From Flavobacteriales bacterium (GTDB lineage Bacteria > Bacteroidota > Bacteroidia > Flavobacteriales_F > PHOS-HE28), in contig JABWBQ010000002.1 in NCBI GenBank assembly GCA_013360395.1, positions 16,703 through 80,702 on the forward strand: a stretch of 64,000 nucleotides of DNA, in the 5' to 3' direction. Under the pieces are notes generated by a model. That model saw only the letters and a list, made by a program, of their open reading frames with translations, was not told the origin of the DNA and did no database searches. Numbering within the stretch: position 1 is the first letter of the stretch; every line of letters starts with the position of its first letter. Positions 13,402 to 52,034 of this stretch are shown in pieces. The position numbers and the translations under genes were made by a program.

Positions 13402-13430
13402 CAGTAGCGTGGGAGGTTAACTTTGAGGAA

Positions 13431-14050: not shown

Positions 14051-14058
14051 AGAACGCC

Positions 14059-14355: not shown

Positions 14356-14374
14356 TGATGAGGATGCTGAGCGG

Positions 14375-14412: not shown

Positions 14413-14443
14413 TGGGTACCCGGCTCTGTCTTAACTTCGTGTC

Positions 14444-15042: not shown

Positions 15043-15118
15043 TGACCATCATGCTGAGCGAAGCGAAGTCCCGCCGTAGCGACCGTGGCCGAGGAACGAG
15101 GCGTACGGACGCTGGAGC

Positions 15119-15158
15119 GGGATTCGAGGTGGGGGGGCAGTACAGAAGGAACATGTAG
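15119..15158 (+). repeat. short reiteration of the icmF 3' terminus (gggattcgaggtgggggggcagtacagaaggaacatgtag)
   Basis: Fourth copy of the icmF terminus. Lies between the PIN gene and the Fic gene. Confidence 0.7.
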
Positions 15159-15186
15159 TGCTGTTCAGCATCACCAAGATGAACAC

Positions 15187-15969: not shown

Positions 15970-16060
15970 CATTGCGAGGAAGTGATCCGTGCCACCGAGG
16001 AAGAGAAGGAGCCGCAGATCGCGACGGTGGAGAACCTGAAATCCGCCTACGCCCCCGAGG
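15966..16060 (+). repeat. partial internal copy of the icmF tail (corresponds to icmF ~13170-13262: ...[25 protein letters not shown]...)
   Basis: gaagtgatccgtgccaccgaggaagagaaggagccgcagatcgcgacggtggagaacctgaaatccgcctacgcccccgag matches the icmF coding sequence and then diverges. Confidence 0.6.
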
Positions 16061-21169: not shown

Positions 21170-21288
21170 CCGGTGGGGGTGTGTGGTTGCCTTGTTCAAG
21201 CTCCCAGGATGAAGTGCCGTGGAGATGCGCGAAGCGGCGCACGTTCCGGGCTTGCTCCTTTTCCTGGAAGCAAATGCCGTTCGTGCTG

Positions 21289-21445
21289 GCGACAGGTCTT
21301 CTGGCTTGCCCGCCTTCCGGTGCCTTCCCATCCACCTTGCGGTGGGCAGTGGCCTCTTGCCGGTCGGCTGCTTCGGGCTTACAGCTTCAGGTAAAGCCCA
21401 GGATTCGCACCTGGTTCCCTTTTCACCCCGGTGTGACCCGGGGAT
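21289..21445 (-). ncRNA. cobalamin (AdoCbl) riboswitch
   Basis: Minus-strand sequence ...GGGUGAAAAGGGAACCAGGUGCGAAUCCUGG...GGCCACUGCCCACCGCAAGGUGGAUGGGAAGGCACCGG...GCCAGAAGACCUGUCGCC contains the AAxxGGGAA / GGUG.AAUCC core, the GCCACUG B12 box, GGGAAGGC and the GCCAG.AGACCUG 3' element. ~120 nt upstream of the operon's first start codon. Confidence 0.8.
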
Positions 21446-21605
21446 CGACAGCGCGGCGAATGTAGGCGATCGAGGCCGCCGGCCAACAGGGAACGGTCAG
21501 GAACGGGAGAATGGCCCGGGGCCGGAGCGCCGACCGTGCTACGGGGGTGCGGCCGCGGCACTGCGGGGATCGTCAAATAAAAGTAAATAAATACCGGTAT
21601 ATGCT

Positions 21606-27529: not shown

Positions 27530-28042
27530 TCAGGGCATCGGTAGTCTCACCTCCGAAAGGCCGAGCGCCATGAGATGATCCAATAACGGCATGGCAGGCC
27601 CGCCCCCGCGTTGTGCGTGATGCAGCAGCGTAAGCCCATGCGGTCCCTTCGAGCGTAGCAGGTTCGGGAAGGCTGCGAGCAGCGCCTTCACTTCCACCGT
27701 GCGGCCGAGCATGGTGAGGACAAAGATGTTCGCCCGCGCGCCTTGACCGATCAGGTATTCCGCGACCGCACGGTCACCCACATGGCCGGCGCCTTCCAGT
27801 GCTGTTTCGAAATCGCCACCGCCCCAGTCGTGGGAGGTATTCAACAAACCGGGGTGTTCCTTCAGCAGGCGCTGTACCGTATCCAGTTCACCATGGCCCG
27901 CTCGGACGAACTCCTGCACCAGGTCGAGCGGTAACCGCGGTGGCTTGGCCTCGCCCGTAAGTTGTCGTTGCGCACGGAAGGATGCGAGGCCGAGCATGGG
28001 AAGTCCAAGGGCGATGGTGGAAAGGAAGTGGCGGCGGTGCAT
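27530..28042 (-). CDS. ankyrin-repeat protein with Tat-type signal
   Basis: MHRRHFLSTIALGLPMLGLAS (RRxFL). Ankyrin-like ...GHGELDTVQRLLKEHPGLLN...ALEGAGHVGDRAVAEYLIGQGA... Confidence 0.6.
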   Translation of the reverse strand: MHRRHFLSTIALGLPMLGLASFRAQRQLTGEAKPPRLPLDLVQEFVRAGHGELDTVQRLLKEHPGLLNTSHDWGGGDFETALEGAGHVGDRAVAEYLIGQGARANIFVLTMLGRTVEVKALLAAFPNLLRSKGPHGLTLLHHAQRGGGPAMPLLDHLMALGLSEVRLPMP

Positions 28043-28044: not shown

Positions 28045-28240
28045 TACTGGGATTATTCGTGCCTCAACGCCCTTACCGGATCGGTCTGCGCCGCCCTGGT
28101 CGCCCGGAAGCTCACGGTGAAGGTGGCGATCAACAGCACGACCAGTCCCGCGCCGGGGAATACCAGCGGCTCGATGGTGGTGCGGAAGGCGAAGTTCTCC
28201 AGCCAGCGGCCCACGCCGAACCAGGCCAAGGGTCTCGACC
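28045..28240 (-). pseudogene. orphan 3' fragment of an FtsX-family permease gene (~190 bp, ~90% identical to the 3' end of 36608-39016)
   Basis: Encodes ...NFAFRTTIEPLVFPGAGLVVLLIATFTVSFRATRAAQTDPVRALRHE*, matching ...NFAFRTTIEPLVFLGAGLVVLLIATFTVSFRAIRAAQTDPVRALRCE* of the intact gene. No 5' part is present. Confidence 0.75.
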
Positions 28241-28536
28241 TCGGCATCCTCGTTGTTCCCGGAATGGCTGTGCCATTGTTGATCGTCCGGCCATGGAGTA
28301 TGTGGATTCCTATGCTCGAAGATCGGGTGCGTGACCACCGCGTCCAGTTCAGCAGTGACCGAACATCCCGCAGTGGGCTGTCCACGCTGCTCGCGACTAC
28401 GACCGCTGTCTGTTCAATGTTCATCCTTGGGGGTGGACCTGAAAGGAGGGCGCACTACCCGCATTGTGACCAACGGTTGCGAATGGCGCGGAACGGGCAG
28501 TGCCTCCGGGACGGACGGGGATAGTTTTGGGAAACC

Positions 28537-29463
28537 ATGCGATGCCCCTATTGCGAGAGCACGAAGTCACTACTTGTGGGCCATGTCTTTTGTTCCCGGC
28601 ATGCCCATGCGGACATGAATGCATTGCGCAGCGGGACGCTTTACATCAAAACGAAAAGGCTCGAGGAAACGGCCGACCATGTTTCGCGGCTTTCCATCCG
28701 CTTGATGCTCAATGGTCGTCAATGGTACAAGGTGGATGGTGGTGATCGGCTGGTCCATCGGGACAATTTCCTGGTGATCGATCAGGGCCAGCACTACCGT
28801 ACCGCATTCAGTGGGGAGCGGGACCTGGAAATGCTCATGGTCGGTTTCCGGCCCGGATCGGCGCAGGAGGTGGCTCGAAGCCTGACCCTGGGACATGAAC
28901 AACTGCTTGACGAGCCTTGTCGGGATACGGAGGGGCCCGTGTTCGCCGCGCAGACATATACCATGGATCCCGTGATCCGCGCACTATTCTCCCAGCTCCA
29001 CGTCTTGGTTCAAACCGGGGTGGAAGACCACGCGAGCGACGATATCGAAGTGATCCATGATCGTTTGATGGAAAGGTTGATCGGGTTGCAGTCCGGTGTC
29101 CGCTTGAACATGGAACGCTTGGACCTGGTGCGACGCGCCACGCGCGTGGAGATCTGGAAACGCCTGACCATTGCACGGGAATACGCGGAAGCTCACCACG
29201 CGCATGCACTCTCCGTTGCCGACCTTGCCCGGGTGGCCTGCCTCTCTCCGCACCACTTCAAGCGGTTGTTCCGCGAAGTGTACGGGGTGCCACCGCACCG
29301 ATTCCTGCGCCAGGTGCGGTTGATGCACGCCCGCCACCTGTTGTCCGATGGTGACCGACCGGTACATGAAGTGGCCCTGGCCGTTGGGTTCAAGGATGCG
29401 AGCGCGTTCAGCCGGGTCTACCGGCAGGTCATGGGTCGAGCCCCGAGGGACGAGGAGCACTAA
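28537..29463 (+). CDS. AraC family transcriptional regulator
   Basis: C-terminal double HTH (...LSVADLARVACLSPHHFKRLFREVYGVPPHRFLRQVRLMHARHLL...VGFKDASAFSRVYRQVMG). Cupin-like N-terminal half. Confidence 0.8.
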   Translation: MRCPYCESTKSLLVGHVFCSRHAHADMNALRSGTLYIKTKRLEETADHVSRLSIRLMLNGRQWYKVDGGDRLVHRDNFLVIDQGQHYRTAFSGERDLEMLMVGFRPGSAQEVARSLTLGHEQLLDEPCRDTEGPVFAAQTYTMDPVIRALFSQLHVLVQTGVEDHASDDIEVIHDRLMERLIGLQSGVRLNMERLDLVRRATRVEIWKRLTIAREYAEAHHAHALSVADLARVACLSPHHFKRLFREVYGVPPHRFLRQVRLMHARHLLSDGDRPVHEVALAVGFKDASAFSRVYRQVMGRAPRDEEH

Positions 29464-29501
29464 GGAACGCACTTCTGAAAATAGCCCGTTCCGCACATGG
29501 G

Positions 29502-30590
29502 ATGAATGCGTCGGCGACAAACCTTGCCAAGGTCCACATCCCGTTCCCATTCGGGGTGGTAACACAGGCCATGATCCCCTTCCGCACGACCCTTGCCCTT
29601 TGCTTCGGTTGCCTTCCTTTCACCGATCAGGCACAAGTCCTAACCGCACTTGATGTTCTTCCCCTGCTTGGGGATACTTTCCGCTACTACGGCGTGGAGG
29701 ACGATGAACTCTTCGATCCGGGGGAAGCTGGTTCCGGCGTGGTCTGGGACCATGAAGATCTGGTGGTCGAATTGGGGAGCTATACGCAGATCCGGCCGAT
29801 CGAACCCTCGACCGCACCCGGCATATCGACCTATCCAGCCAGCGACCTGGTGCTCGAGCGCACCATCAGTATGACGGCCGACCTGGAAAGGACCTACTTC
29901 GACCTCGACACCACGGGTTTGCGCGAGCTGGGTTCCACCGGCGATCCGTTGAGCTACGTGTTCGATGTGCCTGAGCGGGTGCAACCGATCCCGATGGTGT
30001 TCGACTCGGTATACACTGGATCGTACTGTCACAATTCCAGCGGTTTTGGCCCGTCGTACCATACCTGCGGTGAGACTTCCCATGTACTCGACGGCATCGG
30101 CACGCTGATCATGCCGTACGGTACCTTCAACGGTGTGCGGCGGACCACCTACTACAGGTATCATGTCAACGACGACTCACCGACGGATACCTCCCATGTC
30201 ACCTATCACCGTTGGTGGATCCCCGGGCTACGGCGCCCTGTTCTGGAGCTTTCCCGGTTCACAGGATCGAACGGTGTGGTGCTCTCCAACGCCAGGACCC
30301 TGACGCCATCCAGTGTATTGGGCGTTCCGGAGCTCGGAGCGAGGATGATCAGTGTGAGCCCCAACCCATTTGTGGACCGGGTCGAGGTGGTCCTGGCGGA
30401 ACCCATCCGGAAGGAGGGTACGGTCCGTGTTCTCGCCGCCGATGGTCGCGGCCTATATGACGGGAGGATCACGACCGGTACTTCACGGATCCTTGTGGAC
30501 CTGGGCAACCTTCCTTGCGGAATGCTCCTGATGGAGCTTGAACTGGACAGTGGCCGCAGGACATACAAACTGATACATCAGCAACAATGA
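29502..30590 (+). CDS. secreted hypothetical protein with T9SS C-terminal sorting domain
   Basis: Internal signal peptide MIPFRTTLALCFGCLPFTDQAQ. CTD ...ISVSPNPFVDRVEVVL....GLYDGRI.... Confidence 0.55.
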   Translation: MNASATNLAKVHIPFPFGVVTQAMIPFRTTLALCFGCLPFTDQAQVLTALDVLPLLGDTFRYYGVEDDELFDPGEAGSGVVWDHEDLVVELGSYTQIRPIEPSTAPGISTYPASDLVLERTISMTADLERTYFDLDTTGLRELGSTGDPLSYVFDVPERVQPIPMVFDSVYTGSYCHNSSGFGPSYHTCGETSHVLDGIGTLIMPYGTFNGVRRTTYYRYHVNDDSPTDTSHVTYHRWWIPGLRRPVLELSRFTGSNGVVLSNARTLTPSSVLGVPELGARMISVSPNPFVDRVEVVLAEPIRKEGTVRVLAADGRGLYDGRITTGTSRILVDLGNLPCGMLLMELELDSGRRTYKLIHQQQ

Positions 30591-31930
30591 TCAATTCAAG
30601 GATCCCCTGTCGGTTCACGGTCGTCGCTTGGGCGATGGTCCTTAACACATTCATGGCGTGTGCTCAGGAGCAACTTCCCCGGCGTGTCTTTCTTGGGGTC
30701 CGCATGGAGAACGTCACCGATGACATGCGGCGGATCATGGGCGTGGGTGACTGGCCGGCCGTGCTGCTGAGCGAAATACTACCGGGTGGATCCGCGGAAA
30801 AGACGGGCTGGCGGAAAGGGGACCTGCTGACGACCCTGAACGGGATCCAAGTAGGGACCACGGTGGAGGTCATCGCGGAACTGGCGAACCATCAGTCGGG
30901 CAGCTCCATCACCTACCGCATACTGCGCGACAAGAAACCGGTGACCGGCAAACTGAAGTTGATCGCTTGGCCCGGGGAGAGCTACCCCGACCTCAGCGTG
31001 GAGTACACCACACATCGGACCGTCAATGGGCTGCAACGTGCCATCCTGACGCAGCAGCGGAAGAAGGGATCCGGGCGGCTCCCGTTAGTGGTCTTCATCG
31101 GTGGCATCGGCTGCTATGCCCTCGACTCGCCTCTGGATACCGCACGCAGTGAAACTCAACTGTTGAACGGATTGAGCCGGAAAGGCTTTGCCTGTGCGCG
31201 GCTGGAGAAACCGGGAATGGGGGATGCCGCACGCAGCAGCACGGGGTGTGGCGAGGTGAGCTTCATGAACGAGATGACGGGCTATGCGGAAATGATCCGG
31301 CAATTGAAGCAACGCCCAGACATCGACAGCTCGGACGTGACCATCATCGGCCACAGCATGGGGGGCGTGTTCGCGCCGATGATCGCGCAGCGCACCCCGG
31401 TCCAACGGATCATCGCCTACGGCACGATCGGGAGCAGTTTCGTGGAGTATCTGGCCAAAACACGCCGCACCATCGCAGAAGCATACGGTTGGGACGCAGC
31501 ACGCACGGACGCGTTCATCAAGGACTTTTGCGAGTGCGCCGTGTGGTACTTCGCGGACAAGCTCACCACGGCACAGGCGGCCGAGAAAAAGCCGGCCTGC
31601 GGGGAGTATGTGGGCATCTTCGACCTGCGCTCGCGAGCATACAATGAAGAGCTCTATGCCTTGAACATCCCCACGGCATGGCAGGATTTCAAAGGACGCG
31701 CGCTCCTGCTGTGGGGCAAGGCCGATTATATCGCTGCGCGGCATGACCATGAGATCCTGCGCGACATGATCCAACGGGCGAACCCCGGATCCGTCACGTT
31801 CAAGGAGATCCCTGACGCGGACCATGGCATGAACCAGGCCAACGACTTCCAAGCTGCGGTGGCGGGCAGCGGACCCTACCAGCCGGGCGTCGGGCGCGTG
31901 GTCGCGGATTGGTTGAGCACGGGACCATGA
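30587..31930 (+). CDS. PDZ domain-containing alpha/beta hydrolase
   Basis: PDZ-like segment (..VLLSEILPGGSAEKTGWRKGDLLTTLNGIQV..). Nucleophile elbow GHSMGG with downstream Asp/His candidates. Confidence 0.65.
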   Translation: MINSRIPCRFTVVAWAMVLNTFMACAQEQLPRRVFLGVRMENVTDDMRRIMGVGDWPAVLLSEILPGGSAEKTGWRKGDLLTTLNGIQVGTTVEVIAELANHQSGSSITYRILRDKKPVTGKLKLIAWPGESYPDLSVEYTTHRTVNGLQRAILTQQRKKGSGRLPLVVFIGGIGCYALDSPLDTARSETQLLNGLSRKGFACARLEKPGMGDAARSSTGCGEVSFMNEMTGYAEMIRQLKQRPDIDSSDVTIIGHSMGGVFAPMIAQRTPVQRIIAYGTIGSSFVEYLAKTRRTIAEAYGWDAARTDAFIKDFCECAVWYFADKLTTAQAAEKKPACGEYVGIFDLRSRAYNEELYALNIPTAWQDFKGRALLLWGKADYIAARHDHEILRDMIQRANPGSVTFKEIPDADHGMNQANDFQAAVAGSGPYQPGVGRVVADWLSTGP

Positions 31931-33246
31931 TCGCATCTGCGACATACCGGTTACCGGTGATCGCCTCGGCCCTGCTGATCTCCGGAACATGCACAGCGCA
32001 ACATCCTTCCGTCCAGGATGTCCTGAGCGCGTTCACGGCGGGCTATGCGGAACTGGATCCGGAGCCGTTCTCCCTGGACTTCCGCGAACGACTGGCGGCC
32101 GTGCCTTCCGAGGAGGTGCTGGCTCGACAAGCGGCCTTCTTCCAGGATCAACGTCAGCGTCTGACGAACGTCGACACGACCCGTGCTTCAGCGGATCAGG
32201 TGTTGTTGCTGGACCTTGCCCTGTACGAGGTGAACTACCAAACGGACCGGATCGCACTGGAGCGTCGTTGGATCCAGGCTGGACGCCCGATGCCGACGCC
32301 CAGTGTCCATACCCTTCCGGATCATGAGGCCTGGTACGACCTGCTGGTACGGCGGTTCACGGGCTATGAGCGCACACCTGCCGACCTGATGGCCTTCGGC
32401 GAAGCAGAGGTGGCGCGTTGCCACCAGGAGATCCGACGGCTTCGGGACGAACGAGCGGGCCGGGTGGACGCCGAGGCCTGGATCACGGACAAGGCCGAAC
32501 TGCTGCGCCGGTTCGCGGTGATCGACAGCACGGTGCGGGCGCACCTGATCGGGTTCGTTGCCGCAGTGGACGTTCCGGTCGTACAGGCGATGGAATGGCC
32601 GGACGCCGGTCCATACACGCCGCCCGGGATCTACTTGTCCAAGGATGACAATGCTTACGGTACTGCCGTTTTCCTGTTCAACTTCTTTGAGCAACGGTTC
32701 GATGCACGGGCCTTGGACTGGATCTACCTGCATGAAGCCATACCCGGCCACCATCTGCAATGGAGTTTGCGGCATACCCGCCCGGCTGAGGACCTTCGCG
32801 CACACCTGCTCTACCCCGGCAACTTCGAAGGATGGGCTTGCTATGTGGAGTACCAAGGCAGGGCGCTCGGTCTGTACACCGACCCCTTGCAGGAACTCGG
32901 CAAGTGGGAATGGGACCTGGTGCGTTCGGTGCGGGTGGTGCTCGATGCCGGCATTCACGGTCTTGGATGGTCGCGGGAGCAGGCCCTGGCCTACTGGGAG
33001 AAGCACATTCCAGGCAAGCCCGCCCTGGCCGATCGCGAGGTGACGCGGGTGACCAACTGGCCCGCCCAGGCCTTGAGCTACAAGGTGGGCGCCGACGGCA
33101 TCCAGCGGCTGCGTGACCGCCTCGCGGAAGCGCACGGCCCACGGTTCAATGCGGCCCGCTTCCATCGCGCCTTCCTGGACCTGGGCATGGTGCCGCTGCC
33201 CATCGCGGAGGATCAATTGGCACAACGATTAACCTGCGCACCATGA
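31909..33246 (+). CDS. DUF885 family protein
   Basis: LHEAIPGHHLQ (the HExxPGHH motif diagnostic of DUF885) plus the family's C-terminal helical region. Confidence 0.75.
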   Translation: MVEHGTMIASATYRLPVIASALLISGTCTAQHPSVQDVLSAFTAGYAELDPEPFSLDFRERLAAVPSEEVLARQAAFFQDQRQRLTNVDTTRASADQVLLLDLALYEVNYQTDRIALERRWIQAGRPMPTPSVHTLPDHEAWYDLLVRRFTGYERTPADLMAFGEAEVARCHQEIRRLRDERAGRVDAEAWITDKAELLRRFAVIDSTVRAHLIGFVAAVDVPVVQAMEWPDAGPYTPPGIYLSKDDNAYGTAVFLFNFFEQRFDARALDWIYLHEAIPGHHLQWSLRHTRPAEDLRAHLLYPGNFEGWACYVEYQGRALGLYTDPLQELGKWEWDLVRSVRVVLDAGIHGLGWSREQALAYWEKHIPGKPALADREVTRVTNWPAQALSYKVGADGIQRLRDRLAEAHGPRFNAARFHRAFLDLGMVPLPIAEDQLAQRLTCAP

Positions 33247-34661
33247 GGAATCTGATCCTGCCATTCACCGCGACCTGCCTGTGCTCCCTGTCCCAGGCGC
33301 AGGCACCGAGCATCGATTCCTTGATGCAGGTGATCGTGGAACGCACCGAGTTCAGCGGTACCGTGCTGGTGGCCGACCAGGGCGAGATCCTTTACCACGA
33401 AGCCTTCGGTCTTGCGAACCGCGAGTGGAACGTGCCCAACACGACCGATTCCCGCTACAAGCTTGCGTCGCTCGGGAAACAGTTCACGGCCTTGCTCATT
33501 CTTCAACTCGCGGATGAGGGCAAACTGTCCATCGATGATCCGCTGGTGAAATACATCCCGGAGTACAAGGTGAAGAACGCGGACCGGATCCTGCTCCGCC
33601 ATGTGTTGTCGCACTCATCGGGGATCCCGAACTACCATGCGATCCCGGATTTTGACAGTACGGTCGCCAAACTACCCCGTACACTTGAGGAGTTCGTAGG
33701 GCTCTTTCTCGAGTTACCTCTTCTCTTCGAGCCCGGCAGCGCCACGCAATACTCGAACCTGGGCTACTCCGAGCTGGCGTTGGTGGCGCAGCGCGTGGAC
33801 GGACGATCCTTCAGCGAACAACTGCGCGCAAGGATCTTCTCGCCGGCGGGCATGGTGGACTCCTTCACGGAGGACGATCTCCGCGTGAAACCCCACATGG
33901 CGAACGGGTACGTGAACACATGGACCGGCTACGATCGGGAAGTCTATCGCGACCCTTCATCCGTGATCGGCTCGGGCAATGTGGTCAGCACCACCATGGA
34001 CCTCTTGCGTTACGACCGGGCCCTCCGCAGCGGCAAACTGCTCTCTGAACAAGGGCGACGCGCATGGACCACGATGGTGCGGGGGGATTTCGGCCTGGGC
34101 TGGATGATCATGCGTTATCCCGTTCCCGGGAAGGACAGTGTGACCGTGGCCTTCCACGATGGCGGGAACAGGGGCTACACTACGGTGATGTACCGCTTCC
34201 TGGAGAACGACCGCTGCATCATCGTGCTGTCGAACTCAAGCCAGTACGACGTGTACGGTGTGGCCGGCCGCATCGCGCGCATCCTGCATGGTCGGAAGGT
34301 GCCATACGTCCGGTGGCCGCTCGTGGCCGCGTTCGCACGGGTACTGGAGAAGCAAGGCCCCGAGCAGGCCCGTACGTTCTTCCGGGAGCACCGCAACGAC
34401 CCGGAGTATCTTTTGGACGGCGAAGCCGCCAACTCCCTGGGCTACCAACTGATGGGCAAAGGCCGGTTGGATGACGCTGTTTGTGTGTTCGAGTTGAACG
34501 TTGAGGCCTTTTCGGAGGTGGCCAATGCCTACGACAGTCTCGCAGAAGGCTATATGAAGCAGGGGCGGCGCCAACTGGCGATCAATAACTATGAACGGTC
34601 CTTGGAATTGGACCCGAACAACAGCAACGCCAAGGTGATGCTCGAAAAACTGCGCGGATAA
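33243..34661 (+). CDS. serine hydrolase of the beta-lactamase/PBP family with C-terminal TPR repeats
   Basis: SxxK motif in ASLGKQFTA and a class-C-like YxN region. The C-terminal ~110 aa are TPR-like (..AYDSLAEGYMKQGRRQLAINNYERSLELDPNNSNA..). Confidence 0.7.
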   Translation: MRNLILPFTATCLCSLSQAQAPSIDSLMQVIVERTEFSGTVLVADQGEILYHEAFGLANREWNVPNTTDSRYKLASLGKQFTALLILQLADEGKLSIDDPLVKYIPEYKVKNADRILLRHVLSHSSGIPNYHAIPDFDSTVAKLPRTLEEFVGLFLELPLLFEPGSATQYSNLGYSELALVAQRVDGRSFSEQLRARIFSPAGMVDSFTEDDLRVKPHMANGYVNTWTGYDREVYRDPSSVIGSGNVVSTTMDLLRYDRALRSGKLLSEQGRRAWTTMVRGDFGLGWMIMRYPVPGKDSVTVAFHDGGNRGYTTVMYRFLENDRCIIVLSNSSQYDVYGVAGRIARILHGRKVPYVRWPLVAAFARVLEKQGPEQARTFFREHRNDPEYLLDGEAANSLGYQLMGKGRLDDAVCVFELNVEAFSEVANAYDSLAEGYMKQGRRQLAINNYERSLELDPNNSNAKVMLEKLRG

Positions 34662-35569
34662 TGATGGATCCCATGGTGCGACCAAGCAATCTCCTACCGG
34701 TGCTCCTACTGTGCGGCATGGGCCTGCACGCACAGACCACACCGATCGCTGAGGCTCGGCAGATCACCCGATCCTTCAACTTCGACATGACCCCTTCGCC
34801 GGACGACCGGCATTTGCTGATGGTGACCATTGTGGCCGGGCACGCCCAGATCTTCGTGGGCGCTGCGGACGGCTCACGCTGGGAGCAGGTCACCACCGGT
34901 GCCTACGACCACGAGGATCCCGCCTGGTCGCCCGATGCGGCCCACATTGCCTACGTCCGAACCGATGGGACCACGCGGGTGGTGCATGTCATGGACCGCT
35001 CCGGTGGGAACGACCGCGCCGTGACCCCCCCGCAGGTGCGGGCCATACATCCGAGTTGGACCCCGGACGGAACGGCCATCCTGTTCAGCACCGACGATGA
35101 CCTGCGCCCACCGGCGAAGAACGAATCGGAGATCTACAAATTGCAACTTTCCACCGGTGGCCTCGACACCTTGGTGACCGGGGGGGTGAACACCTTTCCC
35201 GTGCTCTCGCCCGATGGACGGCAATTGGCTTATCGGAAGATCATCGGGGAGATGAACTCCGAGGTCTTCCTGGCCGACCCGGACGGCTCGCGACCACGGA
35301 ACATCACCGACCATCCGGCCTATGAAGGCTGGCCGTCCTGGTCGCCTGATGGCAAGCTGTTGGCCTTCGCGGGCAATCGCAACGGCAAGGACTATCAGAT
35401 CTTCCTACTGCGGCTCGCGGATGGTCACATGGACCTCCTGGCCGATACGCACGGGCGCGCCACCTCGCCCAAATGGGCCCCGGACGGGCGTTCCATCTAC
35501 TTCACCAACTGCCTGCCGCCGGAGAACGGGGGTGGTTGTGAGATCATGTTCGTCATGCTCAATCCTTGA
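34661..35569 (+). CDS. TolB-like PD40 beta-propeller protein
   Basis: Repeated ..PSWSPDG / PAWSPDA / LSPDGRQLAY WD40-like (PD40) motifs. N-terminal signal peptide. Confidence 0.7.
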   Translation: MMDPMVRPSNLLPVLLLCGMGLHAQTTPIAEARQITRSFNFDMTPSPDDRHLLMVTIVAGHAQIFVGAADGSRWEQVTTGAYDHEDPAWSPDAAHIAYVRTDGTTRVVHVMDRSGGNDRAVTPPQVRAIHPSWTPDGTAILFSTDDDLRPPAKNESEIYKLQLSTGGLDTLVTGGVNTFPVLSPDGRQLAYRKIIGEMNSEVFLADPDGSRPRNITDHPAYEGWPSWSPDGKLLAFAGNRNGKDYQIFLLRLADGHMDLLADTHGRATSPKWAPDGRSIYFTNCLPPENGGGCEIMFVMLNP

Positions 35570-35575
35570 TCGCCC

Positions 35576-36508
35576 ATGCCGTTGCACATCACGATATGCG
35601 CATTCCGACCGGAACTGTTGGTCATGGTCCCCTTGGTCCTGGCTTGCAACGGCTTGAGTGAGATGCGTGTGGATCAACAAGGTGCCACGGTTGTGCCGGT
35701 TGACACGGTGATCCTTCATGAGCCCGGCGTGGAGAACGCCTACCCGCGTCTTTCCACCGACGGTAAGCGTATCCTCTACCAGAGCGACCGCACCGGCAAG
35801 TGGCAACTGTTCATCATGGACATCGCCACCGGTACACAGCAGCGCATCACCCACGATGCGCACAACAACAACTTCGTGGACTGGAGCCCGGACAATGAAT
35901 GGATCGCCTTCGTAAGCGATCGTGACGGTAACGAAGAGATCTACCGGATGCGCACGGACGGGAGCGCCTTGGAGCGCCTGACGGATCATCCGGATCGCGA
36001 CATTCATCCCTACTTCAGCCCGGATGGGAAGTACCTGCTTTTCAACAGCACGCGCGCCAATGGCTCGCTGGACATATTCCGCTTGGACCTCGCCACCAAG
36101 GAGCTGATGCACCTGGCGAACAGCATGCAAGAGGAAACCTGTGCGCGCTATTCACCGGACATGAAGCACATCGTCTTCCTGCGCAACGATGTGGCCAGCG
36201 ATGACGTGGCCATCCTCGACCTTTCAACCGGTCTGACCGAGAACCTCACGAGAACGCCCCAGGTGATCGACGGCTGGCCGATGTACAGCCCGGATGGAAC
36301 ATGGATCTACTACAGCACCATGGCCAGTGGCCAACACAGCATCCACCGTGTGCATCCGGATGGGACCGGGGATGAGACCATCACCCGGGCGGCGCCTGGC
36401 GAGGAGGACGGACGCGCCTTCATCGGTCGTGACGGACGGACCTTGATCTACAACAAGCGGGCCAACGGTGCGATCGATATTCGATTGTTGATGATCGACG
36501 AACTCTGA
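35576..36508 (+). CDS. TolB-like PD40 beta-propeller protein (second)
   Basis: ..VDWSPDNEWIAF.., ..YFSPDGKYLLF.., ..YSPDGTWIYY.. repeats. Confidence 0.7.
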   Translation: MPLHITICAFRPELLVMVPLVLACNGLSEMRVDQQGATVVPVDTVILHEPGVENAYPRLSTDGKRILYQSDRTGKWQLFIMDIATGTQQRITHDAHNNNFVDWSPDNEWIAFVSDRDGNEEIYRMRTDGSALERLTDHPDRDIHPYFSPDGKYLLFNSTRANGSLDIFRLDLATKELMHLANSMQEETCARYSPDMKHIVFLRNDVASDDVAILDLSTGLTENLTRTPQVIDGWPMYSPDGTWIYYSTMASGQHSIHRVHPDGTGDETITRAAPGEEDGRAFIGRDGRTLIYNKRANGAIDIRLLMIDEL

Positions 36509-36607
36509 TGGAACCTGAATTTGTGGTGGGGTTTCATGCGCACAACATCCAATTCCGTGGGTGTCAGCATGCACTTGGCCTCGTTCTACACTTCTCACAC
36601 GCTCCCC

Positions 36608-39016
36608 CTACTCACACCTCAACGCCCTTACCGGATCCGTCTGCGCCGCCCGGATTGCCCTGAAGCTCACGGTGAAGGTGGCGATCAACAGCACGACCAG
36701 TCCCGCGCCGAGGAAGACAAGCGGTTCGATGGTGGTGCGGAAGGCGAAGTTCTCCAGCCAGCGCCCCACGCCGAACCAGGCCAAGGGCATGGCCACCAAA
36801 GCACCCACGAGCACCAACAGGAGGAAGTCGCGGGTGACCACCCAGGTGATGCACAGCGTATCTGCCCCCATCACCTTGCGGATGCCGATCTCGCGGGTGC
36901 GCTTCTCGGCGGTCCAGCTGGCGAGCGCGAAGAGACCCAGACAGGCGATGATGACCGCGAGCAGGGAGAAAATGCCGACGAGCTTCGCCAGGCGGCCCTG
37001 CGCTTCGTACTGGGAGTCCAGCTGGTCGTCGAGGAATTGGTACTCGAACGGGAAGTTGGTGGTGCGGCTGTTCCACTCCTTGCGCGCAGCCTCGATCACG
37101 GGTGTGGGATCGCCGGCCTCGGTGCGGATGTAGATGTAGCGCAGCCATTGCGTGATGTCGTCCTTGCCGCATAGGTCGAACACGAAGGGCTGTACGGCCT
37201 TGAACAAGGGGTCGAAGGCGAAGTCCTTGGCCACGCCGATCACGCGCTCGCTGCCATGCGGTGTGTGCATGCGGTCGCCGACGGCCTTGGCGGGATCATC
37301 GGGATGCAGCTGTTTCGCGAAGGTCTCGTTGATCACCACACTGAGCGAATCATCGCCGGGAAAGTCGCGGCTGAACCAGCGCCCCGCAGTGAGTCGGATG
37401 TCCATGGCCTCCTGGAATTCGGGATTCACATACAGCGATGGCAGGTAGGTCCACTGGCCCTGTGCCATGTCGCCCCAGTTGAACTCGTGCGTGTTGTGCT
37501 TCTTGCCGAGGATATCGTTGCTCCAACTCACCGCCTTCACGCCGCTGATCTTCTTCAACTCGGGATAGACCGCCAGGTACACATTGGCCATGGGCGCACG
37601 AACGGGGATCAGCACCACGTGCTCCTTGTTGAAGCCGAGCTCAACGCTCCGCAGGTGGTCGTGCTGTTTCTTCACGAACACGGTGCCGATGATGAGCACC
37701 AGGGCGATGGCGAATTGCACCACCACCAGCGCCTTCCGCAAGGCCTGCCCGCGCGAGGTGCCGCCACTGTTGCCCTTCAGCACCACGGCCGGCTGGAAAC
37801 TGCTGAGGAAGAAGGCCGGGTAGATGCCGCTGAGCAGGCCGAGCACCACGGCCATGCCCAGCACGCCGGGTATCAGTAGCGATGGTAGCGGGATCGTTTC
37901 GCCCGCCAGCGTATTGAACGCGGGCATCAGCAGCTTGATCAGCACCAGCGCGATCACTGCCGCAAGCAGGCTCATCAGCACGCTTTCCAGCAAGAACTGG
38001 CCGATCAACTGTCCTCGCGCCGCGCCCGCCGCCTTGCGCACGCCCACCTCGCGCGCCCGGTACGCACTGCGCGCCGTGGCGAGGTTCATGAAGTTCACCG
38101 CGGCCAGCACCAGGATGAAAAAGCCGATCGCCCAAAGGATGTTCACACTTCCCTTGTCGCCGTTCTGGTGCATCTCGAAATCGAGCTTGCTGGTGAGGTG
38201 GATGTCGGCGAGCGGCTGCAACTCGTGGCCGATCTGATCCTTGAGGAAGTCGGGGTAGTATTTGTGGATGAAGTCCGGAAATACGCGCTCCACCTCGGCC
38301 TTCGTGACGCCTTCCTTCAGCCGCACGTAGGTCCAGCAGGGGTTCCACACCCAGTTGTTGCGCTCGATGTTCTTCCAGAATTGCAGGATGGTGCCCATGC
38401 TCACCAGCCCCTCGAAGCGGATGTGCGAGTTGCGCGGGATCTCGCCCAGGATGCCCGTGACCTGCACGTCCATGGCGTTGTCCCACTTCATCAGCTGACC
38501 CATGGGGTCGGCATCGCCGAAGTACTTCTTCGCCAGTTCCTGCGAGAGCACGATGCTGCCCGGCTTGGCCAGCGCGGTCTTGGGATCACCGGCGATCAGC
38601 GGGTAGTTGAAGAGGTCGAACACGGTGCTGTCCACCAGGTAGAGGCCGCTCTCGGTGAACATGCGGTCGGTGCTGAGGCTGTCGCCCACCTTCAGCGTGT
38701 GCTGCGGGTCCTGGAAGTCGAACCAGCGGCAGTAGCGCTCGATCAGTTCCGGGTGGTCGTGGTAGAGCGTGGGGCCCAGGCCGAAGACCATGCTGCTGCT
38801 GTGCTCCCCTTGGCCCTCCATCTCGATCTCGCCCACCACGCGGCACACACGTTCGGTGTGCGGCACGAAACGGTCGAAGCTGCGCTGGTACCGCACGTAC
38901 AGCCCGATGAGCACGAAGCACGCGATGCCCGTGGCCAGGCCCAGCAGGTTGATGAGGGTGTAGAGCTTCTGCTTCCAGAGGTTGCGGAAGCCGGTGAGGA
39001 GGAGGTTCTTCAGCAT
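36608..39016 (-). CDS. ABC transporter permease, FtsX/MacB family (double FtsX domain)
   Basis: 802 aa. N-terminal TM helix plus MacB-type periplasmic domain, then two FtsX 4-helix bundles. Its C-terminus is the source of the 28045-28240 duplicate. Confidence 0.85.
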   Translation of the reverse strand: MLKNLLLTGFRNLWKQKLYTLINLLGLATGIACFVLIGLYVRYQRSFDRFVPHTERVCRVVGEIEMEGQGEHSSSMVFGLGPTLYHDHPELIERYCRWFDFQDPQHTLKVGDSLSTDRMFTESGLYLVDSTVFDLFNYPLIAGDPKTALAKPGSIVLSQELAKKYFGDADPMGQLMKWDNAMDVQVTGILGEIPRNSHIRFEGLVSMGTILQFWKNIERNNWVWNPCWTYVRLKEGVTKAEVERVFPDFIHKYYPDFLKDQIGHELQPLADIHLTSKLDFEMHQNGDKGSVNILWAIGFFILVLAAVNFMNLATARSAYRAREVGVRKAAGAARGQLIGQFLLESVLMSLLAAVIALVLIKLLMPAFNTLAGETIPLPSLLIPGVLGMAVVLGLLSGIYPAFFLSSFQPAVVLKGNSGGTSRGQALRKALVVVQFAIALVLIIGTVFVKKQHDHLRSVELGFNKEHVVLIPVRAPMANVYLAVYPELKKISGVKAVSWSNDILGKKHNTHEFNWGDMAQGQWTYLPSLYVNPEFQEAMDIRLTAGRWFSRDFPGDDSLSVVINETFAKQLHPDDPAKAVGDRMHTPHGSERVIGVAKDFAFDPLFKAVQPFVFDLCGKDDITQWLRYIYIRTEAGDPTPVIEAARKEWNSRTTNFPFEYQFLDDQLDSQYEAQGRLAKLVGIFSLLAVIIACLGLFALASWTAEKRTREIGIRKVMGADTLCITWVVTRDFLLLVLVGALVAMPLAWFGVGRWLENFAFRTTIEPLVFLGAGLVVLLIATFTVSFRAIRAAQTDPVRALRCE

Positions 39017-39019: not shown

Positions 39020-41455
39020 TTACTCGTATCGCAGGGCCTTCACCGGATCCGCCATCGCCGCTCGGTACGCCTGCACCGATACCGTGAAAACGGTAACGAG
39101 CAGGGTGATCAGCAGGGCCGCGGCGTAGAGCAGGGGTGAGATGCTGGTGTGGTAGGCGAAGGTCTCCAGCCAACGGCCGATGGCGTAGTAGGCCAGCGGG
39201 AAGGCCAGCAGCAGCGCCAGGCCCAGCAGCACCACGAATTCCTTGTTCAGCCGCCGCACGATGTCGAACAGTGGCGCACCCATCACGCGGCGGATGCCGA
39301 TCTCGCGGGTGCGCTGTCTGGTGGTGAAGAACGCCAGCCCGTAGAGACCCATCACCGTGAGCACGATGGTGAGCACGGCGAAGGCGGTGAATACGCGGTA
39401 GAGCTTGTCCTCGGCCTGGTACAGTTGCGCGATACTGTCCGTGAGGAAGGTGGCGTCCCACTCCGCGTTGGGGAACAGCTTCTTCCACTCGGCCTGCAAC
39501 GTGGCCAACTGGGTGGCGACATCACCGGGTTCCAGCCGCAATACCAGGTTCTGCGCACCATAACGCTGGTCGCTCTGGAACATCACCAGCGGCTCAATGG
39601 GCGTGTGCAAGCTGGTGTAGTGGAAGTCCTTCAGCACACCGATCACCGTGAGCTCCTGGTCGGGCTGCGGCGGACTGGCCTGCGCATCGCCAGGGATGAA
39701 GATCTTCTCGCTCAACGGATCCTTCCAACCGAAGGCCTTCACCGCGCTCTCGTTCACCACCACGGCGTTCACGCGGTCGCTGGGGATGGCGGGGTCGAAG
39801 TAGCGTCCTGCCGCCAGTTCCACGCCGAGCAATGCGGGGAAGTCGGCATCGGTGCTCATGGTGGGCATGGGCTTGTCGATGCGCCCCTCCGGCGTGTTCA
39901 CCTTCAGCACCCAGCGGCCGCTGCCCTGGCCGGGCAGGTTCTGCGTGAAGGCCGCACCGGTGACGAAGCTCTGCCGCATCAGCTCATCCTTCACGGGCCG
40001 CAGCTTGTCCCACGCCAGCGTATCCGGCCCGGGCGGCAAGGGCATGGTGATGCTCAGCAGGTTCTCCTTGCGGAAGCCCATGTCCGTGGTGCGCAGCCAG
40101 TGCAGTTGTGCGAACACCGCGAGCGTGCCCACCACCATGAAGAGGGCGATGGCGAACTGCGCGCCCATGAGCACCTTGCGTACACGCTGCTTCCCGGCAC
40201 CGCTGGCAATGCCTTCCTTCAGCAACAGTTGCGGTGAGAAGCGGGAAAGGAAGAAGGCGGGATAACTGCCCGCCACCACGCCGATGGCGAGTACGATGAG
40301 CAGGACGACGACCACGAAACTCCCGCGCATCAGGTAGCCCATGCCGATCTCCTTCTCCGTGATGCTGTTGAACGCAGGCAACGCGAGCCACAGCAGGGCC
40401 AGCGCCACGCCGATGCCGATCACCGCGATCATCACGCTGCCGCCGATGAACTGCGCCACGAGCTGCCTGCGCTGCGCCCCGCTCACCTTGCGCAGGGCCA
40501 CCTCCTTCGCGCGGCGCGTGGCATCGGCCGTGCTCATGTTGATGTAGTTGATGCAGGCGATGGCGAGCACCAGCACGGCCACCAGGGCGAAGAGCGTCAC
40601 GTAGGCCTTGTTGCCCTTCTTCGGCGTGTCGTAGATCAGGTCGTTGTTGAAGTGCACCGCGCGCAGCGGTTCCAGGTTGAAGCGGATGCTTCCTTGGAAC
40701 TGGTCGCCGCCCCATTGTGGGATGATGTACTTCGTGACGAAGGCGTCCATCTTGCCTTGGAAGGCGTGCTCATCCACACCCGGCGCGAGCACCAGGTAGT
40801 TGAAGCAGCTGTTGTTGCCCCACGACTGGTCGAGCTGGGCCTTGGCCTGTGGCGGCATGCCCAGGCGGCTCATGAAGACACCCATCGGGATGTGCGTGTT
40901 CTCCGCCTTGCCGTCGATCACACCGGCCACCTTCAGCGTGCGACCATTGCGGATGACGAGCTTGCCGATGGGGTCCTCCGCGCCGAACATGCGCGTGGCC
41001 ATGTCCTGCATGATCACGATGTTGTCCGGCTCGTCGAGCGCCTCGGGGCCACCGTGCGTGAAGGTGAAATCGAAGGTGCGGAAGGTGCTGGTGTCGGCGT
41101 TGTAGCCGTACTGGGCCAGGTACTTTTGCCCGTTGTATTCCAGTGTGGTCTGCCCGAGCTGGAAGAGCGAGGCACCGGCCTCGATGTCCGGATACTCCTT
41201 CAGCAGAGCCTCCATGATCGGGAAGGGCGTGATGCCGAAGTCGTCCCTGGTGTCGCCGAATTGGTAGTGGGCCTGGATGCGGTAAATGCGGTCGGCCTTC
41301 GCATGGTGGGCATCGAAGCTCAGCTCGTCCTGCACGTAGATGTAGATGAGCATGCAGGCCGTGATGCCGATGGCCAGGCCCAGGATGTTCAGCGCCGCGA
41401 AGAGCTTGTCGCGCTTCAGGCTGCGCCACGCGATGAGGAGGTAGTTCTTCCACAT
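39020..41455 (-). CDS. ABC transporter permease, FtsX/MacB family
   Basis: 811 aa. Same architecture as its neighbour. C-terminal ...DPVKALRYE. Confidence 0.85.
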   Translation of the reverse strand: MWKNYLLIAWRSLKRDKLFAALNILGLAIGITACMLIYIYVQDELSFDAHHAKADRIYRIQAHYQFGDTRDDFGITPFPIMEALLKEYPDIEAGASLFQLGQTTLEYNGQKYLAQYGYNADTSTFRTFDFTFTHGGPEALDEPDNIVIMQDMATRMFGAEDPIGKLVIRNGRTLKVAGVIDGKAENTHIPMGVFMSRLGMPPQAKAQLDQSWGNNSCFNYLVLAPGVDEHAFQGKMDAFVTKYIIPQWGGDQFQGSIRFNLEPLRAVHFNNDLIYDTPKKGNKAYVTLFALVAVLVLAIACINYINMSTADATRRAKEVALRKVSGAQRRQLVAQFIGGSVMIAVIGIGVALALLWLALPAFNSITEKEIGMGYLMRGSFVVVVLLIVLAIGVVAGSYPAFFLSRFSPQLLLKEGIASGAGKQRVRKVLMGAQFAIALFMVVGTLAVFAQLHWLRTTDMGFRKENLLSITMPLPPGPDTLAWDKLRPVKDELMRQSFVTGAAFTQNLPGQGSGRWVLKVNTPEGRIDKPMPTMSTDADFPALLGVELAAGRYFDPAIPSDRVNAVVVNESAVKAFGWKDPLSEKIFIPGDAQASPPQPDQELTVIGVLKDFHYTSLHTPIEPLVMFQSDQRYGAQNLVLRLEPGDVATQLATLQAEWKKLFPNAEWDATFLTDSIAQLYQAEDKLYRVFTAFAVLTIVLTVMGLYGLAFFTTRQRTREIGIRRVMGAPLFDIVRRLNKEFVVLLGLALLLAFPLAYYAIGRWLETFAYHTSISPLLYAAALLITLLVTVFTVSVQAYRAAMADPVKALRYE

Positions 41456-41466
41456 GGGGCCCTCAT

Positions 41467-42162
41467 TTACAGGCGTTCCCCTTCGGCCACCGCTGCGTCG
41501 ATCACCTTGCCATCGAGCAGGTTGATGGTGCGACGTGCGTAGCCGGCGTCGCGCAGGCTGTGGGTCACGATGATGATCGTGGTCCCGGCCTTGTTGAGCT
41601 CGGAAAGCAGGCTCATCACCTCCTCGCCCATGGTGCTGTCCAGGTTGCCGGTGGGCTCGTCGGCCAGGACGAGGCGCGGTGTGTTCACCACCGCACGAGC
41701 AATGGCAACACGCTGCTGCTGGCCGCCGCTGAGTTGTTGGGGGAAGTGCTTGGCGCGATGGCCGATGCCCATGCGTTCCATCGCCTCTTGCACACGTTGC
41801 ATGCGTTCGCCTTTGCCCATGGACGTGTAGATCAGAGGGAGCTCGATGTTCTCGGCGACGGTCAATTCATCGATCAGGTTGAAGCTCTGGAACACGAAGC
41901 CGATGGTGTTCTTGCGCAGCTCCGCGCGCTTACGCTCATTGTAGTTGCTCAGATCCTCGCCGTTCACCAGGTATTGGCCGCTGGTCGGCGCATCAAGCAG
42001 GCCCAGGATGTTCAGCAGGGTGGATTTCCCGCAACCGCTGGGCCCCATGATGGCCACGAATTCACCGGATGCCACTTCGATGTCCACCGCGTTGAGGGCG
42101 GTGGTCTCCACCGTATCGGTGCGGTAGACCTTGGAGAGTTGCAGGGTTCTCAGGAGGCTCAT
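41467..42162 (-). CDS. ABC transporter ATP-binding protein (MacB/LolD-type)
   Basis: Walker A GPSGCGKST, Q-loop, signature LSGGQQQRVAIARA, Walker B LVLADEPTGNLD. Confidence 0.9.
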   Translation of the reverse strand: MSLLRTLQLSKVYRTDTVETTALNAVDIEVASGEFVAIMGPSGCGKSTLLNILGLLDAPTSGQYLVNGEDLSNYNERKRAELRKNTIGFVFQSFNLIDELTVAENIELPLIYTSMGKGERMQRVQEAMERMGIGHRAKHFPQQLSGGQQQRVAIARAVVNTPRLVLADEPTGNLDSTMGEEVMSLLSELNKAGTTIIIVTHSLRDAGYARRTINLLDGKVIDAAVAEGERL

Positions 42163-51903: not shown

Positions 51904-52034
51904 GGCTGCGAAGGTCACGTGCAAGGGCACGATGCGGGGTGACGGCGATCACCTGCCGCGCCGTATTTTGCGGACAGCCGGATGACGGCGTATCCGTCAG
52001 TGACGACCGGCGCCGGACAGAACGACCCGCATGG

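Follow-up and report, generated by a model that had tools for sequence, protein, structure and literature searches.

Why does the 3' end of an intact permease gene stand a second time in the same stretch of DNA, in the same orientation, with a whole series of other genes in between? This question is raised by a locus in the 64,000-nucleotide stretch of Flavobacteriales DNA analysed here (hereafter, the window), where the gene concerned, permB, is the second permease gene of an ABC operon. The original prediction regarded the intervening block as a lower-GC insertion made by an integration mechanism shared with a second locus, icmF. The host lineage itself consists of uncultured high-GC Flavobacteriales which are common in wastewater metagenomes.

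The two copies of the permease gene end

The locus is composed of the following features:

27530-28042, minus strand: g170, a 170-aa gene with no Pfam family, whose ATG lies 10 bp after the orphan stop
28053-28232, minus strand: repeat copy 2, the orphan permB 3' end (last 60 codons plus stop), RHE-stop type allele (alignment, tblastn)
28053-28424, minus strand: chimeric 123-aa ORF in which part of the junction stretch is fused in frame to the orphan (ORF list, no Pfam hit)
28233-28462, no strand: 230-bp junction stretch separating the orphan from the operon promoter region, no homologue
28463-36508, plus strand: seven-gene operon (Pfam; conserved as an operon in relatives)
28537-29463, plus strand: AraC regulator (Pfam)
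29502-30590, plus strand: 362-aa protein, no Pfam hit (ORF)
30587-31930, plus strand: PDZ-alpha/beta hydrolase (Pfam)
31909-33246, plus strand: DUF885 protein (Pfam)
33243-34661, plus strand: beta-lactamase-family protein with TPR (Pfam)
34661-35569 and 35576-36508, plus strand: two PD40 propellers (Pfam)
36509-36607, no strand: 99-bp spacer from the last operon stop to the permB stop (convergent gene ends), no homologue
36608-36787, minus strand: repeat copy 1, the working permB 3' end, RCE-stop type allele (alignment; closest to L003)
36608-39016, minus strand: permB, intact 802-aa FtsX/MacB-type permease (Pfam FtsX and MacB_PCD)
39020-42162, minus strand: upstream ABC operon, with permA (39020-41455) and an ATPase (41467-42162) (Pfam)

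The two copies, which are ~8.5 kb apart and both on the minus strand, differ in register at 15 of 180 nt (28053-28232 vs. 36608-36787), and their homology stops at 28232/28233. Over 171 ungapped nt (28062-28232 vs. 36617-36787) they are 94% identical, and they have in common an exact run of 49 nt. The predicted duplication of the permease gene end, in the same orientation and devoid of the upstream gene body, aligns far beyond chance, although its length is ~180 nt and not ~195 nt. In tblastn, no permB body was found upstream of the orphan, where the alignment ends by 28233. A third match to the repeat, at 64%, corresponds to the 3' end of the tandem paralogue permA (39029-39199).

The orphan (stop codon TAA, 28053-28055) ends in LRHE-stop, as do nearly all permB orthologues, whose amino acid identity is 80-96% in 50+ genomes; the working copy (stop codon TAG, 36608-36610) ends in LRCE-stop, an ending otherwise found among orthologues only in the relatives L001 and L003. 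Over its last 120 nt, the orphan is nearest to the functional permB end of L088, and the working copy is nearest, in all segments, to the permease end of L003. Moreover, permB is a mosaic: L001-like at nt 1500-1875 and L003-like from ~nt 1900 to the stop (a tract that begins at ~-480). Upstream, the permA-ATPase region is colinear with L002 (91.8% nt).

Orphan and working copy align without indels and differ at 10 codons synonymously and at 3 non-synonymously, a split with P ~7e-4 under the assumption that 70% of random changes are non-synonymous. Other repeats behave similarly (10 vs. 2 in L003; 20 vs. 5 in icmF copy 2). Since the differences are mostly synonymous, the copies appear to have diverged as functional alleles in separate lineages; judging from the sequences, they are alleles of different origin. 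The same split led us to reject a plain local tandem duplication whose orphan decays regardless of codon position. The 5' third of both copies is a rare haplotype in common with L003. With regard to a chimeric make-up of both copies around one crossover point, as expected from a Campbell-type event, the first 57-68 nt on the 5' side contain 1 mismatch and the 120 nt on the 3' side contain 14-15, a contrast which is not significant (estimated P ~0.08 given site-wise conservation). A diversity-generating retroelement was also considered and rejected: the mismatches are not adenine-specific, one copy having A at 5/15 (or 3/15) of them. No reverse transcriptase is among the families reported for the block.

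In 27 related loci, the g170 orthologue starts 8-16 bp past an intact permB stop, i.e., these loci are empty sites. Orphan, 10-bp spacer and g170 are colinear with two of them, L008 and L088, and g170 can be taken from these comparisons as the ancestral downstream partner of permB. Given the position of the permB stop in those 27 relatives, the orphan is therefore read as the displaced native end. In consequence, the predicted geometry stands: the block lies between permB and its ancestral partner, with the displaced native end at the far border, and the working end is another allele. An exact look-up of g170 and of the IcmF relative P0091 returned no record for either.

The operon and the variable site behind permB

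The gene content proposed for the block was recovered (AraC regulator, PDZ-hydrolase, DUF885, beta-lactamase-TPR and two propellers), except that the 362-aa protein, previously described as a T9SS protein, has no Pfam hit. The relatives L088 (86.8% nt), L084, L091, L130 and L131 have the seven genes as a conserved operon, and homology to L088 begins at ~28459-28463. Neither the 230-bp stretch nor the 99-bp spacer has any similarity in the fetched loci (blastn, tblastx). Both unique junctions are present in independent assemblies: the Logan contig L074 (8513 bp, at least 20 samples) corresponds to window positions 28179-36691 at 100% identity. The chimeric 123-aa ORF is possibly expressed and might, speculatively, couple translation into g170.

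The lower GC content of the block was borne out, but it is modest (0.608 vs. 0.655 in the left flank and 0.641 in the right flank); the contrast is clearer in GC3, with 0.70-0.80 for the block genes vs. 0.90 for the permeases. Plain GC and GC skew are uninformative as markers of the right boundary because the permease operon itself has a GC of only 0.63. In L088 and L084, the GC3 of the operon is also low (0.72-0.82), which indicates that low GC3 belongs to this operon in every lineage.

In L088, L084 and L091, the operon follows closely on the far side of g170 and has an unchanged orientation, and comparison of gene orders points to a long-standing neighbour of the transporter cluster in relatives (L088, L084, L131). 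Of the opposing view that the block is ancestral in related genomes and the fragment a local duplication, one half is thus borne out by the age of the operon as a neighbour; the other half, a purely local duplication, is at odds with the mostly synonymous divergence of the copies. On the other hand, the site is variable. L002 and L088 have permB genes which are 98% identical, yet the segment [operon-239aa-g170] is present in one and absent in the other, and the genes directly after the permB stop differ from genome to genome. By this gene-order evidence, the site after permB behaves as a hotspot. A donor-type genome, in which the operon, the 99-bp spacer and the 230-bp stretch abut permB, was not found among the fetched loci; L131, the nearest analogue, and L132 were rejected as examples of a donor arrangement, as the permease abutting the operon there is permA and not permB.

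Recurrence of the scar and its possible origins

Displaced gene ends recur at other genes. As had been predicted, the icmF locus bears the same signature as permB, here as an array with repeats of 293, 47, ~37 and 82 nt and three toxin-antitoxin/Fic cassettes behind icmF. Orphans are concentrated in the lineage of the window (the window itself and its close relative L003); in L003, the permB repeat measures 138 nt and the cargo is an AbiE pair. Similar scars with ordinary cargo are found at other genes in L030, L033, L034 and L130. Within the clade, the targets amount to at least four different genes; in addition, one repeat is intergenic and one case concerns a 5' end. The icmF gene in question is that of the fused isobutyryl-CoA mutase, not the type VI secretion gene.

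Recombinases were searched for in the block, in the 64-kb window and in ~117 related loci: (i) none of the seven block genes is a recombinase or a transposase according to Pfam; (ii) no recombinase is recurrent among the top 25 families listed for 53 genes of the window and for 143 genes from the downstream regions of relatives, a listing in which singletons could be hidden; and (iii) XerD and Hin probes, single sequences which may miss divergent integrases, gave no hit at E <= 1 against 6853 six-frame ORFs. Repeat lengths are not fixed, and neither a fixed attachment core nor reproducible repeat boundaries were seen across the insertions at permB or icmF. The short core that both repeats had been expected to share is absent beyond chance: the best word common to the icmF and permB termini has 8 nt, a length reached in 238/500 shuffles. 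With no recombinase found in these loci, an operon-wide low GC3, an old neighbour as cargo, varying boundaries and no core, the notion of a foreign low-GC element inserted by a shared site-specific mechanism is not supported. A tRNA or ncRNA attachment site was likewise rejected (none at either border), and so was the derivation of the block from a plasmid or phage, for which megablast gave no match.

We consider it fairly probable that the locus is the scar of an integrase-free, homology-anchored recombination at a variable hotspot, and not a new kind of mobile element; as such, the scar is that of an already known kind of event. The ancestral gene order would have been ATPase-permA-permB-g170. 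As regards donor arrangement and direction of transfer, we infer that, in the incoming DNA from a related lineage, the AraC-regulated seven-gene operon would have been linked to the 3' part of that lineage's permB allele, permB being the sole homology shared with the chromosome. As regards the sub-mechanism, two routes may be proposed: (i) a Campbell-type event, in which a circularised fragment enters by a single crossover; or (ii) a homologous crossover within permB combined with an illegitimate junction ~180 nt before the recipient stop (homology-facilitated illegitimate recombination, HFIR, or "sequential displacement"). By either route, permB would gain a complete imported 3' end, and the last 180 nt of the recipient gene would be stranded beyond the insert, still joined to g170.

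In agreement with a one-sided recombination, the orphan is contiguous with recipient downstream DNA (colinear, with the ancestral RHE-stop), and the anchor beside the insert has the imported allele (the L003-like tract from ~-480 to the stop). Since imported-type sequence extends up to the stop, beside non-homologous DNA, an ordinary two-sided exchange within permB does not apply. The near-identical 5' third of the repeat is predicted by neither sub-mechanism without an extra gene conversion.

Because the operon is an old neighbour of the locus, a local rearrangement is a live alternative, albeit an unlikely one. In an L088-like ancestor, the segment [operon - variable gene - g170 - last 180 nt of permB] would have been duplicated in tandem, one copy of each duplicated gene would have been lost, and a homologous patch from another lineage would later have covered the last 120 nt of the orphan and most of g170. 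Such a course of events is favoured by the position and orientation of the operon beyond g170 in L088, L084 and L091, and a recent local duplication with a homologous patch would fit the 5' third of the copies, with its single difference and shared rare haplotype. Furthermore, identity to L084 is 94% for g170 from position 27592 on but only 70-82% for the operon, as could be the case if a patch had been imported separately. Nevertheless, at least four events are needed (the duplication, two precise deletions and the patch); neither another copy of the operon nor any remnant of its ancestral neighbours on the left (CHU_C, DUF2911, two-component system, DHFR) is seen in the window; the 230-bp stretch is unrelated to the DNA on the left side of the operon in L088 or L084; and unrelated cargo with the same signature (the AbiE pair of L003, the icmF toxin-antitoxin cassettes, L030, L033) is not accounted for.

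We deem it improbable that a tyrosine or serine recombinase whose gene lies in another part of the genome puts integrase-less cassettes with replacement ends into the 3' ends of particular genes. Direct repeats of the target 3' end with gene function restored, together with empty sites in the 27 relatives, are the exact geometry of such elements; the icmF tandem array resembles accretion, two of the repeats (~47 nt) have a plausible att size, and orphans are concentrated in the window and L003. But, apart from the lack of a recombinase in the loci searched, the boundaries vary both at permB (180 vs. 138 nt) and inside the icmF array, the diverse targets have no common core, and an ordinary chromosomal operon that has long been present in the neighbourhood serves as cargo.

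Finally, an assembly artefact, in which an empty-site chromosome and a separate 8.5-kb molecule (circular or from another strain) were mis-threaded through the repeat, is hardly credible: the exact 49-nt run is indeed longer than k = 31 and every Logan contig ends within the repeat, so that the Logan graphs do not phase the two halves, but the orphan/230-bp and spacer/permB junctions are found at 100% identity in contigs of at least 20 samples, an 8.5-kb circle without a replication gene is an implausible stable replicon, and the window contig itself threads the repeat, whose copies can be phased by ordinary 150-nt reads thanks to differences on either side of the 49-nt run.

Consequences and comparison with known systems

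Under homology-anchored recombination, operons and small defence or toxin-antitoxin cassettes would be shuffled beside conserved genes without mobile-element machinery, and stranded gene ends could be read as dated scars which distinguish recipient from donor. For annotation purposes, such orphans should not count as evidence of integrative elements or of foreign origin; the low-GC "island" described here has long been a neighbour in the chromosome. Were the process frequent, the "sequential displacement" model would extend from polymorphic-toxin loci to ordinary genes. A bolder idea, which we put forward as doubtful, is that genes of this clade with diverged gene-end copies on both sides act as integrase-free, RecA-dependent "homology-borne cassettes" that loop out as circles via their flanking repeats, re-enter at orthologous gene ends in other species and build arrays, such as the one behind icmF. 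If true, this would be a general route of cassette capture parallel to integrons, with ordinary gene ends as attachment sites.

Some integrases target the 3' ends of protein-coding genes and supply a replacement end, as in phage 21 and e14 at icd, or ICESt1/ICESt3 and CIMEs at fda. As in these elements, the gene studied here is intact through a 3' end borne by the insert, the native end is displaced to the far border, and tandem accretion is possible. Unlike them, the present case has no integrase found and lacks a fixed att core; its boundaries are variable, its targets many, and its cargo is non-mobile.

In Campbell-type single crossovers, 56/60 integrants from conjugation experiments with E. 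coli arose by a single crossover of a circle with a truncated gene end, and 109-950 bp were duplicated (PMC3240628). In both cases, a gene-end duplication of variable length flanks the insert, and the process is homology-dependent and integrase-free. But those integrants are experimental and were obtained with identical homology, whereas the events described here are natural, took place between lineages and have copies which are 6-12% diverged; the circle is here only putative.

In the arrays of T6SS effector-immunity, Rhs and CDI loci, displaced 3' ends occur without an integrase, through sequential displacement or HFIR (PMC5361080). Here, the anchors are housekeeping and transport genes (FtsX permease, IcmF mutase, g170) whose 3' ends are conserved and not polymorphic, and the cargo is an operon or toxin-antitoxin pairs instead of toxin tips with immunity genes. 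In other respects, the permB locus resembles those arrays: the conserved upstream sequence would be the only anchor, the incoming DNA would bring a gene end with it, the former 3' fragment would be pushed distally together with the downstream DNA, and arrays (cf. icmF) would be built by repetition with no known integrase.

The duplicated permease end and its setting

Permease operon and duplicated gene end (window coordinates, strand, feature)
27530-28042, minus: g170, a 170-aa gene with its ATG 10 bp past the TAA of the orphan
28053-28232, minus: orphan, a copy of the permB 3' end
36608-39016, minus: permB, an FtsX/MacB-type permease gene of the ABC operon
39020-41455, minus: permA, the tandem paralogue of permB in this operon; its end (39029-39199) is a third copy, at 64%
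41467-42162, minus: ATPase gene of the same operon

The duplication of the permB 3' end proposed in the original prediction does exist: a repeat search of the window aligned 28062-28232 with 36617-36787 (171 nt, 94% identity), and 28053-28232, compared in register with 36608-36787, differs from it at 15 of 180 nt. The two copies are minus-strand sequences, each closing with a stop codon, and past 28232 the similarity between them is sharply lost. As had also been claimed, no permease body was found upstream of the orphan. The orphan product ends in ...PLAWFGVGRWLENFAFRTTIEPLVFPGAGLVVLLIATFTVSFRATRAAQTDPVRALRHE, the intact permB product in ...LRCE. An uninterrupted 123-aa ORF (28053-28424, minus strand) runs in frame from the junction stretch into the transmembrane helix of the orphan and ends 10 bp before g170; this predicted ORF could be translated, and might keep the coupling to g170.

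Between the copies, seven plus-strand genes (hereafter, the block or operon) encode an AraC regulator, a 362-aa protein with no Pfam match, a PDZ-alpha/beta hydrolase, a DUF885 protein, a beta-lactamase family protein with TPR, and two PD40 propellers. The lower GC reported for the block is real but modest in plain GC (0.608 versus 0.655 and 0.641 in the flanks, and 0.631 in the permease operon), while GC3 separates it sharply from the permeases (0.70-0.80 versus 0.90). Independent Logan assemblies from at least 20 samples contain 28179-36691 at 100%, both unique junctions included, although k = 31 graphs break at an exact 49-nt run common to both copies and alone cannot phase the repeat.

Native end, hotspot and origin of the operon

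The source belongs to a high-GC "Flavobacteriales" lineage known from metagenome-assembled genomes only, and relatives of permB (80-96% aa) occur in more than 50 genomes. In 27 empty sites (15 genome loci, 11 metagenome loci and the related locus L088), the g170 orthologue starts 8-16 bp past an intact permB stop, and the orphan and g170 of the window align colinearly with these loci. The ...RHE* ending of the orphan is also that of nearly all orthologues, among them those from all empty-site genomes examined, while ...RCE* is confined to the intact copy of the window and the relatives L001 and L003. The orphan is thus the native permB end, displaced, which supports the predicted geometry of an insertion with a replacement 3' end and a displaced copy, the native end being still colinear with g170. 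In two metagenome contigs (L125 967-2052; L126 2954-4039), sequence matching the ~305 N-terminal residues of permB continues directly into sequence matching the ~69 C-terminal residues of g170, perhaps through a deletion that fused both genes.

Right after the permB stop, different genomes start with different genes, and the 3' side of permB is a hotspot.

Genes directly after the permB stop in related loci
L001: OLD-family nuclease and DUF2130
L002: CHU_C protein
L003: AbiEii pair
L005: YhcG nuclease
L043: type IIG restriction-modification enzyme
Other genomes: rhodanese, or DoxX/DUF2071 genes

A second orphan (138 nt) lies 1.3 kb downstream of permB in the close relative L003 and flanks the AbiEii pair. 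In that locus (2680-4130; permB 94% aa), permB is followed by an AbiEii-type nucleotidyltransferase and its HTH partner and then by the orphan, beyond which an AraC-type HTH gene takes the place of g170.

The operon also occurs near these genes in relatives: (i) L088 carries it (86.8% nt to the window), followed by a 239-aa gene, g170 and permB, with the permB-g170 junction intact; (ii) L084/L085 show the order CHU_C, block-like operon, rhodanese, 260-aa gene and g170; (iii) in L091 it is close to an inverted g170; and (iv) in the complete genome CP129489.1 it directly adjoins the permA orthologue (87% aa), permB and g170 being absent. What follows permB in L002 is colinear with the genes that precede the operon in L085, and an intact CHU_C gene thus converges directly on permB in L002. 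L002 and L088 have 98% identical permB genes, yet of the two only L088 has the operon together with the 239-aa gene and g170; these near-identical lineages are thus polymorphic for the presence of 9.5 kb. At the left border of the L088 operon, 2070-2179 is a 110-nt remnant of the CHU_C 3' end (L002 counterpart, 12707-12816). Operon GC3 is low in relatives too (0.73-0.82 in L088 and 0.72-0.79 in L084, beside a permB of 0.88); it is therefore intrinsic to the operon and not a sign of recent foreign origin. The block matched nothing in plasmid or phage collections, and it is not foreign to this neighbourhood.

Tests of site-specific integration, and scars at other genes

The original prediction suggested an integration mechanism shared with the icmF array; read as a foreign low-GC element inserted by a common site-specific mechanism, it is not supported. 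No recombinase or transposase family was found in the block and, among the families listed, none recurred in the 53 window genes or in 143 genes that follow permB in relatives. Single-sequence XerD and Hin probes gave nothing at E <= 1 against 6853 six-frame ORFs from the window and ~117 loci. Neither block border has a tRNA or Rfam family. Repeat length is not constant (180 versus 138 nt at permB; 293, ~37, 47 and an internal 82 nt in the icmF array), and the icmF and permB termini have just an 8-mer in common, which 238/500 shuffles reach. Elsewhere in the window, ARAGORN calls a 91-nt tRNA-Glu(CTC) at 52778-52868 (minus) inside the plus-strand ORF 51939-54404, probably a false positive because Rfam sees no tRNA there at gathering score. 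C-5 cytosine DNA methylase, PIF1-like helicase, SRAP peptidase and AAA_21 genes could point to further variable or defence regions of the window.

The icmF array itself is real. The gene (9814-13401) is not a T6SS gene; it encodes a fused isobutyryl-CoA mutase (B12-binding, MeaB and mutase domains) and is followed by three small cassettes (13402-16058), each bounded by an icmF-end copy. The icmF relatives L128 and L129 have no orphans, other genes following directly after the stop. A self-repeat scan over 1.71 Mb of fetched loci revealed more scars, at other genes.

Repeats at icmF and in related loci
13431-14050: icmF cassette, DUF4160/DUF2442
14444-15042: icmF cassette, DUF2281/PIN
About 15187-15969: icmF cassette, Fic
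14063-14355, 14376-14411, 15112-15158: icmF 3'-end copies, plus an internal 82-nt piece (15977-16058)
L030, 4097-4189 and 6027-6119: last 62 nt of g170 and 31 nt past its stop, 96%, around a 536-aa DUF5122/Por_Secre_tail gene
L033, 2940-3074 and 3882-4016: end of a 244-aa gene, 90%, around an opposite-strand RidA/L-PSP gene
L034, 6354-6428 and 6927-7001: 75-nt 5'-end duplicate of an AcrB-like gene, flanking a single inserted gene
L130, 990-1061 and 1473-1544: 72-nt intergenic repeat around a DUF202 gene

The targets are thus many, with no tie to stop codons, and the cargo is ordinary, which suggests a general process in the clade. In the vicinity of the B12-dependent icmF and of a DUF5074 gene (16130-17173), a cobalamin riboswitch (RF00174, 108.9 bits; 21274-21464, minus) lies upstream of the minus-strand genes 20057-21331 and 18140-20050. 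Tandem-like internal repeats with periods of ~240 and ~410 nt (families D1, D3 and D9) occupy coding regions at 20298-21113 and 21666-22360, and gene 21606-23081 encodes three DUF2249 domains, ScdA_N and hemerythrin.

Divergence of the copies and probable route of insertion

In their homologous stretch, the permB copies differ by 10 synonymous and three non-synonymous codons, with zero indels; if ~70% of random changes are assumed to be non-synonymous, three or fewer of 13 has P ~7e-4. Synonymous differences also prevail in the L003 repeat (10 versus 2) and in icmF copies 2 (20 versus 5) and 4 (6 versus 2). The copies therefore diverged in separate lineages, each as a functional allele, and at least one of the two was imported. 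For the intact copy the nearest sequence is that of L003, whichever segment is compared (20/292 upstream of the repeat, 2/57, 7/120), and the last 120 nt of the orphan are nearest to the functional end of L088 (9/120). permB is a mosaic: nt 1500-1875 are 97-99% identical to L001, while the stretch between nt ~1900 and the stop is ~86% identical to L001 and 92-97% to L003. Because RCE-type sequence reaches the stop codon and DNA without homologue lies directly beyond, a two-sided exchange within the gene cannot account for it.

The best-supported reading is an integrase-free, homology-anchored insertion at a hotspot with a conserved anchor on one side only. Its main rival, in which local tandem duplication was followed by reciprocal loss and, later, by a homologous patch, is favoured by the old neighbourhood of the operon at this locus and by the 5' third of the repeat, where the copies are nearly identical and carry a rare CCCTTGGCC haplotype common to L003. 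This third, whose contrast with the rest is not statistically firm, could be a crossover or heteroduplex region, or reflect recent local origin. That rival requires, however, several additional events and leaves the same signature around unrelated cargo unexplained. A recombinase acting in trans is possible, without positive support, and a diversity-generating retroelement is excluded, as the mismatches are not adenine-specific.

Homology-anchored insertion could proceed through (i) one crossover of a circular molecule with a truncated gene end; or (ii) a homologous anchor combined with an illegitimate junction. A junction downstream of the stop would leave no orphan, matching most lineages, while one inside the last few hundred bases would leave one; only insertions keeping the gene intact would survive, which would explain why the orphans are gene ends. 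No donor-type arrangement was found among the fetched loci. The permB repeat adds a new case to an already known class of recombination scar, and the most interesting thread is recurrent integrase-free cassette accretion behind conserved genes in this clade. In E. coli, 56/60 integrants arose via single crossover of a circle with a truncated gene end, duplicating 109-950 bp of that end (PMC3240628); the route through an illegitimate junction, termed "sequential displacement", has been proposed for T6SS, Rhs and CDI arrays, whose orphaned 3' ends are associated with no known integrase (PMC5361080). Both yield exactly the product type seen at permB.
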